Shown here piece after piece: positions 44,818-60,517 of a stretch of 64,000 nucleotides of DNA (positions are counted from its first letter, which is position 1; each line of letters starts with the position of its first letter). Both the position numbers and the translations under genes were made by a program. Below the pieces are notes generated by a model, which saw nothing but the letters and a program-made list of their open reading frames with translations, made no database searches and was not told the origin of the DNA. Source of the stretch: Octopus vulgaris (Eukaryota); the NCBI GenBank assembly GCA_951406725.2, contig OX597828.1, forward strand, positions 23,126,001 to 23,190,000. The letters are read 5' to 3'.

Positions 44818-44985
44818 AAATAAATGAAAGAATGGAGTTGAAAGACGAATTAACAAAATTAATTTATTTTATTTTCGACATATGTTTCGAAGGCTGCATA
44901 TTCCTAATTTCGAAGGAATAAGGGGTGCATTATGCCGCCTTCTCATCAGGAAAAGTAAGGAACTTATGTCAGCATCAAGATGCAC
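44818..44985 (-). mobile_element. Second copy of the HHR-bearing repeat
   Basis: Shares aataaatgaaa..aatggagttgaa, the HHR body and aaggaac.t.t.tcagc.tcaaga with 59990-60150. Flanked by (AT)n on both sides. Confidence 0.7.
44872..44954 (-). ncRNA. Type I hammerhead ribozyme, intact core (copy 1)
   Basis: Minus strand reads UUUUC-CUGAUGA-GAAGGC-[42 nt incl. UAUUCCU/AGGAAUA hairpin]-GCCUUC-GAAA-CAUAUG-UC-GAAAA. Stem I is 5 bp, stem II is 6 bp, all conserved core nucleotides are present, and stem III is palindromic (ACAUAUGU). Predicted cleavage after C at 44877. Confidence 0.88.
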
Positions 44986-47414
44986 AAATATATATATGTA
45001 TATATATATATATATATATATATATATATATATATATATATACATATACACACACATTTGTATATATTCACATCTTACTGTTTTTATCACCAAAACTTTA
45101 TACACACGCACATACACTCACGCATACATGTATATATGAGTGCGGACGCATAGAGACTGAACACAGGCGCAGATGAATATTTACTTGCGTCTGACCTAAT
45201 TGACAACACCGCTACTTCAATGTCAATCACATCTGAGCGAAAGTGCATTTTTTACAAATTTATATGTTACGGAACTCGCGTAGGTTAACAAATTCCACTG
45301 TGTATTTTTTCCCCTGTTTCCCTGTGTATCTTTTAGTCTGATACTCTACTCACCTTACACACACCTGCCTATCATCTTTTCTTAGCGACAAGCGTTATAT
45401 GCAGAAGATTGTCATTGAATATTCTCACTATAATGAATACGCTGTTTTTCGCAAAATCTTTTGAATGGCTTTGAAAATGCTTTGTTGTATATATTTGCTT
45501 GTATTCATACTGTGAACTGAAATTAACCCTAAATTTTTAGGCACATTAATACCATTCTCAGTGCATAAATTGAATACCAACAGAGAACAGGAATCGATCG
45601 GTTTTAACCATTTCTCAAATCTGAGGCGTGCATGTTGTCTGAGTTGGAAATCAATATTTCAACCGATTTTAAAGCTAAAATCTCTCCTACTTATTATTGT
45701 GGTTATTTGATTGACACACGACATATATAATATATCGAAACAGAAGTGTTTGATTAAAACAATAGATTTATCTCGGTCCAGCTCCGTATTCACTTATTGC
45801 ATTTTCCCTACATACGAAAATAAACAATTCATATTAAACTTTCTGCATTATTTGACAAACACTGACTGGGATTTTGTCCAAGCTCCTTTAGTTCCTACCC
45901 TAACAACCACAATGTTTAACGAGGTGTTCTACTGTCGTTCACGTTTAAAATGGAGGATTTTGTTTGATAGCGTTTGGTTACATTGGTCGAAAACACCTTT
46001 TTATCAGCTGCCGTATAAAATCCACGAAATTCAAAGAATCATGAAAGAGAAACTCTTCTATGCATCGCTCTCACACTCTGCTGCTTTCTCTCAGCTGTTC
46101 TTCTATTCCCCTCTTTCTATTACTGTCTCGCTTTGTATATACCCATACACAAACACGCATGTATATATATATGTGTGTGAATTTATGTCTGTGTGTATAC
46201 ATATATATATATATATATATATATATACAGAGATATAAATTCACACATGTATATGCACATAAGCATGAATGTATATATATATATATATATATATATGTAT
46301 GTATGTATGCATGTATGTATGTGTGTATATATATATATATATATATATATATATATATATATGTATATATATATATATATATATATATATATATATATAT
46401 GTGTGTGTGTGTGTGTGTGTGTGTGTGTGTATGAATATATATATATGTATGTATATGTATGTATGTATATATATATATATATATATATATATATATATAT
46501 ATATATATATATGCAGTTTTCTCTTGCTATTTCTCATTCTCGCCTTTTGTCTCTTTTTGTTCTCTCCTTTCTGTATTTATCCTGTTCTCCATCCCTCTCT
46601 TCTCCGTTCTATTACTATTTCCTCCTCTCTCTCTCTGTCTCTCTCTCTCTCTCTCTCTCTCTCTCTCTCTCTCGTCTTTCCCCCTTCGTCTCTTTCTGTC
46701 CCTTTACTCTCAGTCACTCGCTATACTCTTCATGTTCACCTTTTCGTTCAATAAGCAATACGAAAAACATGCTCTGGCAATATTCCTATGGTCTTGCCTT
46801 GCCAAACTGTAAGTTATATAAACACCTACGTGTGGAACGGATCAATGCGGTTAATATGGAAATAAATACTGCACACACTTCGAATCAGTCCCTCGAGGCA
46901 TTCATTAAGATTAACAGTCACATTAATCAACAGAACATACCGACTTACATGTCGAGTCTCAGAACGCAGGACTCCAGATTGCCGAAAGATGGTCGGCAGA
47001 TCATATCTACACAAAGGTACACCGTTGTGTTAAAGCAGCGGACACGTGATTAAAACGGCTCAGAGGCTTTCTCAATTATAACTAATGTTGTCGTTGCTGT
47101 AAGTGGTATTATCATGTTATTTTTGTCCATGATCAATAACACCGATTAGGCGTTTATCAATAAAAATCAGTCCGGCAGCGAATTGGTCATCGCAATTTCT
47201 AGGACTACCTCAACAATTTTTGTTTTAAGGGAAGTAATACCCCCCCCCCCATCCCACATACACACACTGATAAAAGTGACGATGATTAGATTCTGAAGGA
47301 TATGATAATGACTCATAGAAGGGTATAAAAGGAATGGAATTCTGTCCCGATAATACTTGAAGTAAAGGATCAAGTAATATCCATCAGCTTTTTTAGTGCT
47401 TCAGTTCTCTCTTT

Positions 47415-48055
47415 AATGGTTTCAAAGTTGGAAAGAAGTCCAACAATTTGGGGGATGAGGTGAGATGATTATATTAGCCCCAGTATTTTCGTTGCTACTT
47501 TATCTACCTTAATTTATGAAGACTGAAAGAATAAACAGTCGATCTTGGCGGAAATTAATCTAAAACATAACGCGGGATAAGAAAACCCCATTAGATTTTG
47601 TTCGACACAATACAGATTCTGCTAGCCGGCCGCTCTCATTTACCTAAATGAAGCTTACTACTAAAGGCACAAGTGCTGAAATTTTGGGGAGGAATCTAGT
47701 CGATTACATCGACCCAAGTGCTCAACTTGTATTATCATTATTTTATAGACCCTGAAAGAATTAAAGGTGAAGTCGAACTCGGCAGAAATTTAACTCGAAT
47801 TTAAAAAAGCGGAAAGAAATTGCCCGTAATGCTTTGTTTTGTCCCATTCAGTAACGGTTCCACTAGCTCGCCGCTCTCAATTTTTTATGTAACAGAGTCC
47901 AGTACGCAACTGGTATTATTTCATCGACGACGAAAGATATGAAGGGCAAAGTCGACCTGGGCAGAAATTAAATTCAAATTTTAAAATGCGGAAAGAAAAT
48001 GGCCTGTTAGGGTTATGTCCCATGCATTATCAGTTCTGCTAGCTCGCCGCTCTTA
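47415..48055 (-). mobile_element. Three tandem SINE family B copies
   Basis: Each ends (in + sense) in ctagc(t/c)(c/g)gccgc at ~47635, ~47875 and ~48050, with a gtcga..ggc.gaaatt core. Confidence 0.75.
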
Positions 48056-48583
48056 GTTGTCTATATAACAGACTCCATCTTTGTAAATGATAAGTGTGTT
48101 AATTTCCATGTTAAATAGATTTATTCGTGGTTTGTTAATTGCTATATAGCAAGTTTCCGTTTATGAACTATGATACACTTTGGAAAAATTTCTCAGTAGT
48201 TTAATCACAGACTTTAATTTAAACCAAAACTACTGGCAATAATCATCTATAGCTCAAGGTTTAATGCCAACTTAATATTAGATGTTATATGTCCTCTTAT
48301 AACGAGGTCGATATAATTATAAATATTAATTTTCTTTAATCAATAAAGATGGGGAAGAATTTTTGTGATAGACGATAATAAAACGAAAGCATCAAGTCGC
48401 TAGGTGCACATTACAAATAAATTATTTTATAGAGAACTAGATTTATAGAAATTTATAGCGCAAATGTATAAAATTGGACAAGGGTTTAATAATGAATTTT
48501 TATATCTTTTTAAGTTGAAGAGGTGCACTTATTCATTTTTATATTACTATAAAATCGGGATATTACTCATATAACAATATATA

Positions 48584-58917: not shown

Positions 58918-59011
58918 TATATATATATATATATGTGTGTGTGTGTGTGTGTGTGTGTGTGTGTGTGTGTGTGCGTGTGCGCGTGTGTGTGTGTGTGTGT
59001 TCTTTTATTTG

Positions 59012-59200
59012 TTTACTTGATTCAGTCATTTGACTGTGTGAATGATGAAGCAGCGCCTTTAATCGAACAAATCGACCCTAAGACATATATATGAGCCTAG
59101 TACTTACTCTATCGATGTATGTTGCCGAACCGCTAAGTTACGGGGATATAAACACACCAACATCGGCTGTCGAACGATAGTGTGGAGACAAACACCGACA
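59012..59200 (-). mobile_element. SINE family A 3' half
   Basis: ttcagtcatttgactg...agcctagtacttactctatcg...ccgctaagttacgggga. Confidence 0.85.
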
Positions 59201-59983
59201 CATAAATACACATTTATAAACATGTGCTTCCGTTGTTTACTGTCATATTTTACATGGCCGATTAAATATATTAGAAAATTGCTTTCGGTTCTTAGCCATC
59301 GCTTCATTTAACGATTGGTTTTACAGTGCTAGAATTATTGAACCAATTCGCTAATGATGTTGTATGTATATATATATATATATATATATATATATATATA
59401 TATATATATATATATATATATATATATATATATATATATATATATATATAATGTTTTTTATGTAACGTACTTCAATCTTCACTTTATTGAAATTGTTGTG
59501 CTAATGCATTAAAATTTACAAGTTATGAAAACTTTCATCGTTCGACTATATAATGTGTTCTTTTGTGCGTGGGTATATTTTGTGGGTTGGTAAATCCTGG
59601 CAACATACGTCGCATTATGCCACCGTGTACCGCGTTCTAATGAAATATTTAGAAATAAGTCTCCTGTGCAATAGATTTGTCTTTATGTCTTGCAAACTGC
59701 TTTCAATTTATTTTATTATTCTCTTAGTTCAAATCATATTCACCTATATAACTTTCCTATCAATATGTGAGTGTGTGTGTGTATGTGTATTTGATTTACG
59801 ATATACATATATATATATATATATATATATATATATATATATATGTAGATGAATGAATTATCCTAGTATGGATAATTCGGTTAATCGATACCTGGGTAGC
59901 AAATTCACGTCAGTAAAACACGGTTGAGGTTACATGCCAAGGGCCGAGCCCCGTGTTCGTGTGTGGAAATTTGTGTGTTTTTT

Positions 59984-60517
59984 TATATGAATAAATGAAA
60001 ATAATGGAGTTGAACGAAGATTTTAACAATATTCCTTTACTTTCGACATATGTTTCGAAGACTTCATACTCTTAATTCCGAAGGAATGAAGGTTGCATTA
60101 TACCGTCTTCTCATCAGGAAATACAAGGAACCTCTATCAGCCTCAAGACGAACAAAAGCTTCTTACCGTCTGCCTACATGGTTTCCACAGTGATAATAAT
60201 TATTTATTTAAAATAATCCGTTATAAGCAATGACGTCAAAATTGGATGGAAGGAGGAAGTTATAAAAAATAGGAAGGTGACAGTATGTATGCTGTATGTA
60301 TGGGGATTGACGGGTGTATGTTTTGTTAATGAGTTTGAGTGTTTGTGTGTGTGTATGAGTATGTGTATATAACTGCATCTGTGTCTGTCTGTGTGTGTTT
60401 GCAAATGTATGTGTGGGGGGGACAATTACGAGTATGGAGTCTTCGAAATATATGTCGAAAGTAAAGGAATTTTATTAAAATCTTCGTTCAACTCCATTCT
60501 TTTCATTTATTCATATA
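59984..60517. mobile_element. HHR-bearing retroelement remnant (Penelope-like/retrozyme) with 88-bp inverted arms
   Basis: 59984-60071 and 60430-60517 are inverted copies with 5 mismatches. The left arm holds the 3' half of the HHR. Homologous to 44818-44985. Penelope association rests on known HHR-Penelope links; no RT is seen. Confidence 0.6.
60032..60130 (-). ncRNA. Type I hammerhead ribozyme, intact core (copy 2)
   Basis: Minus strand reads UUCCUU-GUA-UUUC-CUGAUGA-GAAGAC-[42 nt]-GUCUUC-GAAA-CAUAUG-UC-GAAA-GUA-AAGGAA. Same architecture as copy 1, with A-U replacing G-C in stem II. Predicted cleavage after C at 60045. Confidence 0.9.

Follow-up and report, generated by a model that had tools for sequence, protein, structure and literature searches.

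Two complete type I hammerhead ribozyme cores, both on the minus strand, were identified in a 64,000-nt stretch of the Octopus vulgaris genome (contig OX597828.1, positions 23,126,001 to 23,190,000; the whole stretch is referred to below as the window). We interpret them as hammerheads in the pseudo-long terminal repeats (pLTRs) of 5′-truncated copies of a recently amplified Penelope-like element (PLE), derived from the Hydra clade and encoding a reverse transcriptase (RT) and a GIY-YIG endonuclease (EN). Its protein probably nicks (TA)n tracts, and reverse transcription probably starts at two fixed positions 3′ of the ribozyme; the hammerheads are predicted to cleave only as dimers. The probability of this reading as a whole is estimated at about 80%. 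The relevant features of the window are the following.

44771–44812: (TA)n tract at the 3′ end of insertion 1
44815–44988, minus strand: insertion 1, a 5′-truncated 3′ end (pLTR without tail) of PLE subfamily B, between (TA)n tracts
44872–44954, minus strand: hammerhead copy 1, type I, predicted cut after 44877
44895–44936, minus strand: 42-nt stem II insert of copy 1, predicted helix extension and apical hairpin
44989–45045: (TA)n tract at the 5′ junction of insertion 1 (locus L035 in the survey of solo junctions)
59807–59844: (TA)n tract left of insertion 2
59845–60427, minus strand: long arm of insertion 2, with 3′ untranslated region (UTR), pLTR with hammerhead, and tail, of PLE subfamily A
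59845–59985, minus strand: ~140-nt tail of insertion 2, which in near-full copies is the 5′ UTR ahead of the start of the open reading frame (ORF)
60032–60130, minus strand: hammerhead copy 2, type I, predicted cut after 60045
60063–60104, minus strand: 42-nt stem II insert of copy 2
60424–60517, plus strand: inverted 5′-truncated arm of insertion 2, with the 3′ half of the hammerhead and no tail, found by BLAST within the window
60513–60528: (TA)n tract right of insertion 2

An earlier note on this DNA, made from the letters alone, had placed two hammerheads with complete cores at these positions, and both were recovered by direct reading and by a type I descriptor. Each combines CUGANGA, GAAA and NUH around a three-way junction whose open arm is stem I. 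In copy 1, CUGAUGA lies at 44949–44943, GAAA at 44888–44885 and C17 at 44877; stem II is GAAGGC/GCCUUC and stem III is the ACAUAUGU palindrome. Copy 2 has CUGAUGA at 60117–60111, C17 at 60045, a GAAGAC/GUCUUC stem II and a stem I of 4 bp, a 3 × 3 loop and 6–7 bp. The 6-bp stem II, the 42-nt insert and the position of C17, 3′ of which minus-strand cleavage is predicted, agree with the note in both copies. Its description of the motifs as intact holds for the core and fails elsewhere: a private change disrupts the distal stem I of copy 1, and copy 2 carries private changes within the stem II extension. Nor is the insert more drifted than stem II, as had been proposed, since the copies differ at 8 of 42 insert positions and 2 of 12 stem II positions. 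Sequence comparison attributes the differences between the copies mainly to membership of separate subfamilies. The third, inverted and truncated copy at 60424–60517 had been overlooked.

The descriptor matched only these two sites in 64 kb, versus one site across 60 order-3 Markov control windows. An Rfam scan, a check suggested in the note, returned no hammerhead among the best 150 of 393 matches for the window, nor among the five matches for copy 2. The long insert probably defeats the Rfam models; the miss tests the model library rather than the motif.

Both motifs are widely dispersed, as the note had expected. Searches of the genome (2.8 Gb, 227 contigs) yielded 1653 candidates for copy 2 (subfamily A) and 2030 for copy 1 (subfamily B); among the 40 scored for each, the best reached 95–97% and 96–98% identity, respectively. 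The two subfamilies are ~80% alike. At loci L002, L011 and L015, a same-strand GIY-YIG ORF terminating ~520 nt upstream is connected to the core through a 3′ UTR. Subfamily B has its own RT and GIY-YIG ORF upstream on the same strand, with an EN 84% identical to that of A. The near-full-length copy L031 consists of an inverted arm, a pLTR with hammerhead, the tail, the ORF, the 3′ UTR, a second, internally deleted pLTR and (TA)n; the unit is ~3.2 kb with clear pLTRs, and its ORF starts ~255 nt past the cut site. Insertion 1 is 96% identical to the 3′ ends of ORF-bearing copies L098 and L104, and the long arm of insertion 2 matches L106, which bears an ORF, at 96% identity in the 3′ UTR and L031 at 97% in the pLTR and tail. 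The rest of the window yielded no remnant of this ORF.

A search with the protein returned 29,356 candidates, of which 118 were scored and yielded 151 matches; the 12 long copies examined contained open frames of up to 833 aa. Between representative copies of A and B, the ratio of nonsynonymous to synonymous divergence (dN/dS) was 0.07 for RT and 0.12 for EN, with dS of 0.47–0.70; across 21 pairs it ranged from 0.07 to 0.40 (RT) and from 0.08 to 0.62 (EN), always below 1 in both domains. An AlphaFold model of the ORF (predicted local distance difference test score, pLDDT, 76.5) matched RT folds including telomerase (E 1e-7). Nine of the ten best matches of the EN model (pLDDT 89.9) were GIY-YIG nucleases, led by Hpy188I, T4 EndoII and I-TevI, all of them weak (E 0.26–0.9; none reaches 0.001). 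The EN has invariant Y, Y, G, R and H residues; PDB sequence searches gave no significant match. Given the ORF linkage, purifying selection and structural matches, the family is a protein-coding PLE, and the window copies are 5′ truncations of it. The element has amplified recently in this genome. It combines a single RT and GIY-YIG ORF, pLTRs with a hammerhead, partial tandems, an inverted 5′-truncated copy and a tail at one end, as expected of an EN-containing PLE.

The note was right that the type I hammerhead is borne by a retroelement. It had further taken the family to be non-autonomous, which would correspond to a retrozyme or short interspersed element (SINE)-like family mobilised in trans. 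Most copies are indeed short and devoid of an ORF, and retrozymes carry type I hammerheads, reportedly derived from PLE pLTRs (bioRxiv 10.64898/2026.07.22.740005). However, the ragged 5′ ends of the copies grade into an ORF under purifying selection, and each subfamily has such an ORF of its own. Metazoan non-LTR retrozymes resemble the present family in their type I hammerhead, weak helix III and dispersed repeats, but are ORF-less tandem units of 150–450 bp (PMC7229834). No head-to-tail arrays of that size were found here, and a direct partial tandem was present at one of 30 subfamily A loci (L017). A non-LTR retrozyme is largely refuted by the ORF linkage, and mobilisation in trans as a whole is very improbable.

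Conservation of the ribozyme was examined in 152 near-full copies, which fell into 10 clusters with at least three members (120 copies). None of the 11 core columns varied between these 10 subfamilies, compared with 25 of 74 flank columns (p = 0.029). For 21 copies chosen by hand, the specified structure (stems I and II plus the 6-pair extension) was paired in 85.7% of cells, versus 46–51% when slid. Both-side changes were found in stem I (pair 22–103: UA in 14 copies, CG in five, UG in two), in stem II (pair 35–85, with a G·U intermediate) and in the extension (pair 42–78: AU in 10, UA in nine, broken in two). The stem II pair is the one singled out in the note (AU in 14, GC in four, GU in one, broken in two); its compensatory change is real at the subfamily level and weak evidence when taken alone. 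The stem III palindrome was kept across copies, with a G·U-compatible variant. Stems I and II are thus supported by pairing across variants and stem III can form, in line with the proposal that the fold was under selection.

In folding calculations, stem III had a free energy of +2.4 kcal/mol as a hairpin and −7.0 kcal/mol as a self-duplex, which agrees with the earlier suggestion that the palindrome is suited to cleavage as a dimer. The minimum free energy (MFE) cofold of copy 2 was a domain-swapped dimeric hammerhead. Pairing of ACAUAUGU between two ribozymes in a tandem transcript would make cleavage slow and gated. The predicted folding fits such behaviour, as reported for PLE hammerheads, which cleave slowly or poorly in vitro (PMC4209133; PMC6765202); activity of the present copies is a prediction. 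Weak palindromic stems III have been described as common (PMC3088659).

Several results weigh against the proposed interpretation. The active dimer was the MFE structure in 5 of 15 copies, copy 1 and subfamily B preferred other folds, and RNAalifold favoured an alternative hairpin in which the core, including GA and the cut site, is occluded. The insert varied in 18 of 42 columns and was no more conserved than the flanks (p = 0.42). The core result is biased, as loci retrieved with a core pattern supplied four of the 10 subfamily medoids and 14 of the 21 aligned sequences. In several subfamilies stem II contains mismatches (A·C, U·U), and each compensatory change is probably a single evolutionary event. 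None of the 12 long copies had an ORF complete from start to stop, and Pfam assigned neither the ORF nor three homologs to a family with significance.

The folding results bear on another explanation, in which the PLE hammerhead has lost its cleavage activity and the motif persists for a structural or protein-binding role. It would account for copies that span the cut site and for the competing folds that dominate 10 of 15 cofolds; it is also consistent with the poor in vitro cleavage of PLE hammerheads (PMC4209133) and with in vitro insertion of an anole PLE, which was indifferent to catalytic mutants (PMC11167929). Yet all 11 core columns are fixed across subfamilies whose ORFs have diverged to dS of 0.5–1.3, and the palindrome is kept, including by a G·U-compatible variant. 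We consider loss of cleavage quite unlikely.

The insert is predicted to form an imperfect helix that lengthens stem II to ~11–12 bp, followed by an internal loop and an apical hairpin of 5–7 bp. The note had called this stem II unusually long, and published Hydra loops of 3–10 nt bear it out. The arm is proposed to be a selected structure that depends more on length and pairing than on sequence. Its most likely role, proposed tentatively, is that of a handle for binding or positioning in the element ribonucleoprotein (RNP); a tertiary partner of stem I and a tolerated passenger are each possible at lower odds. Exact core matches with a 45–70 nt spacer numbered 3570 with a CAUAUG loop (control 0) and 805 with CAUGUG (control 2), together 4,375 compared with 123 for short spacers of 12–39 nt; these are counts of motifs over several families, not of insertions. 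An older family, with copies 83–89% alike and an intact core in 10 of 30, has an unrelated stem II sequence and, like the main family, a 58-nt spacer, the hairpin design, the palindrome, inverted arms and a tail.

At least six further hammerhead families had unrelated long stems II (spacers of 55–70 nt) and the same palindromic stem III (L142, L149, L152, L163; G000:C1:19210988, C1:95343592, C1:84559933). At G000:C2:44916348–44985494, nine near-identical TAGCTA-type long-stem hammerheads occur within 70 kb at a spacing of 3–21 kb, a local segmental or tandem amplification. L165 and L174 represent a separate dispersed short-loop family with a 15-nt spacer and the same stem III palindrome. A metagenome pattern scan gave 0 of 120 loci with both stems or a related ORF; its matches are hence due to chance.

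The insertions followed a regular pattern. Their 3′ ends fell at two places, ~59 nt and ~200 nt past C17, and (TA)n of at least 8 nt followed 156 of 180 3′ ends, versus 15% of random 40-mers in the window. (TA)n also preceded 9 of 16 solo 5′ junctions (60 loci were examined; the rest were inverted or unresolved). Among 48 head-to-head pairs, the tail was present on exactly one arm in 42, on neither in six and on both in none; the six tail-less pairs belong mostly to divergent subfamilies, where the tail probe may miss, and pair and end counts are slightly redundant because a single insertion is occasionally represented by several overlapping loci. Insertion 2 (59845–60517) is such a pair, with arms joined head-to-head through a 4-nt AATT overlap and an inverted arm 94% identical to copy 2 and its long arm (BLAST within the window). 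Inserted copies run through the cut site. In a check for 5′ ends piling up there, one resolved arm ended within 3 nt of the cut, with the arm end unresolved in about half of 44 pairs and arms shorter than ~60 nt under-detected.

For an anole PLE in vitro, RT starts at two internal sites bracketing the tail, both target strands are cleaved, uncleaved RNA is the main substrate and catalytic mutations have no effect on insertion (PMC11167929). By the mechanism proposed here, the octopus element protein would nick (TA)n tracts and reverse transcription would prime at two fixed sites downstream of the ribozyme. Synthesis of the two arms would be primed by separate target ends, each at a different start site, with microhomology joining the arms. 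Since the copies span C17, the template would be RNA uncut, or re-ligated, at that hammerhead.

The (TA)n flanks could instead have been made at insertion, through terminal addition or slippage by a telomerase-like RT, rather than marking a pre-existing target; loss of the zinc-finger linker would then have been costless. This would explain why (TA)n occurs at only 9 of 16 solo 5′ junctions compared with 87% of 3′ ends, and it fits an element whose first 3′ end itself runs into ATAT and whose RT fold matches include telomerase. However, 9 of 16 is far above the 15% background, both window insertions are flanked by (TA)n on both sides, and (TA)n insertion is described for the Hydra families already published (PMC8557442). 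We regard synthesis of the flanks as unlikely and retain nicking of existing (TA)n tracts as the preferred explanation.

The Hydra clade is defined by a C-terminal EN without CCHH, by RWK and DKT motifs, and by CxxC and CxH near a conserved E and N, and further by a CxCX5C linker, hammerheads and insertion into (TA)n; one Octopus family is listed (PMC8557442). The present ORF likewise has a single frame with a C-terminal GIY-YIG EN lacking CCHH, CxxC and CxH flanking the conserved E and N, DKT and GLYRDD, and carries RWL in place of RWK, within the RW(K/L) shared with the clade, including Hydra-1_Obim of Octopus bimaculoides. The clade also shares a 3′-proximal hammerhead whose stem III is palindromic, (TA)n flanks and inverted 5′-truncated copies (PMC8557442). 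Membership of Naiad was ruled out by the C-terminal EN and canonical hammerhead.

In contrast to the clade, the CxCX5C linker before the EN was found in 0 of 37 family copies; its position is occupied by a stretch of 123–143 aa, 31% Asn and modelled as disordered. A CxC linker was present in 112 of 113 EN-containing homologs (top 120 of 253 matches). Because of this absence, we class the element as a variant derived from Hydra rather than as a typical member. A quick tree with 40 homologs, unrooted, with no outgroup and excluding the published Hydra proteins, which were compared by eye, showed a long branch for the family, next to two proteins with a CxC linker (SH-aLRT 95), which suggests linker loss. 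In the older long-arm family, a 3′ UTR shared with locus L184 ties the hammerhead to an EN with a canonical CxC linker; by this one locus, the long arm may predate linker loss. Near L184, L120, L131, L135 and L136 lie remnants of other Hydra-like families with the canonical linker, so linker-bearing and linker-less lineages coexist in the genome. No linker-less Hydra lineage was found described in the literature covered, outside which lay most subscription papers, Repbase and Dfam. Because the linker is lost yet (TA)n is targeted, the RNA, the RT or the GIY-YIG domain may be responsible for targeting, with the long arm, kept at similar length and shape across families of unrelated sequence, acting as the RNP handle that fixes the two priming sites and so gives every inverted insertion one arm with a tail and one without; we hold this combined proposal to be speculative.

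The ribozyme also differs from its known relatives. Loop II is a 42-nt insert, predicted to be structured, here, whereas each of the 26 Hydra entries in supplement S2 of PMC8557442 has 3–10 nt; Hydra-1_Obim, a different family, has a loop of 8 nt and retains the linker, and two plant PLE-X elements in the same table have loops II of 29–35 nt. The minimal type I hammerheads of metazoan PLEs (Cervera and de la Pena 2014, PMC4209133) share the pLTR location, tiny palindromic helix III, predicted dimer cleavage, mostly solo truncated copies and pairs 100–700 bp apart on opposite strands. Their helix II, in contrast, is reported as 6–8 bp, and helix I is longer and bipartite in the octopus copies. 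Poseidon PAc of Anolis (PMC11167929) similarly has two 3′ termini bracketing a tail downstream of the hammerhead, and its copies span the cut site; unlike here, that tail is usually 30–40 bp (~140 bp in our family), and the ORF starts at stem II rather than ~255 nt after the cut site. No long stem II PLE hammerhead was found described in cephalopods, although variants in Lunse et al. on dimeric hammerheads are possible.

Other observations concern the surroundings of the insertions. The window is AT-rich and dense in dinucleotide repeats, and microsatellites dominate repeat finder output. The tail contains a splice-donor-like GT at 59891 (minus strand), and an acceptor-like pyrimidine tract with CAG follows it by ~65 nt, before the ORF start (L031 3800–3864; L095); together they form a candidate 5′ UTR intron, a feature noted for other PLEs by Craig et al. 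(PMC8557442). Positions 59984–60077 and 60424–60517 form an inverted repeat, and genome-wide many insertions are inverted repeats of 60–500 bp with >90% identity. Read-through of these would give long double-stranded RNA masking the ribozyme, which could serve as a substrate for adenosine-to-inosine editing or small RNAs.

A short GC-rich repeat end (GGCCATGCTGG[GA]GCACCGCC), often beside (TA)n, recurs at 60529–60552, 34952–35001, 24656–24679, 48843–48866 and 34804–34828; it is very deep in sequencing runs and is probably a SINE-like high-copy element. A tandem array with a 9-nt period occupies 29912–30300. Contigs of four runs guessed to be RNA span most of the stretch and, being uninformative on ends or strand, give no evidence either way. 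At L031, positions 8229–9501 adjoining the near-full PLE hold an ORF fragment that we take to be of the long interspersed element (AP endonuclease) type.

Hammerheads in PLE pLTRs and a Hydra family in Octopus are already known. No published account was found of the long stem II arm, of a (TA)n preference that outlasts the linker, or of the one-tail-per-pair rule. The long stem II recurs in several families of this genome, where Rfam missed it and short-loop descriptors would miss it too; given the excess of long-spacer over short-spacer core matches, ribozyme censuses of such genomes are likely undercounts. The one-tail rule for inverted pairs provides genome-scale support for two priming sites, so far seen in vitro for one PLE, and the young copies offer a practical system for asking what PLE hammerheads do. 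A (TA)n preference without the linker bears on the published hypothesis that the linker drives microsatellite targeting in Hydra, Neptune and Naiad. If true, this lineage would be a natural deletion experiment, in which the zinc-finger linker is gone and (TA)n targeting is retained.

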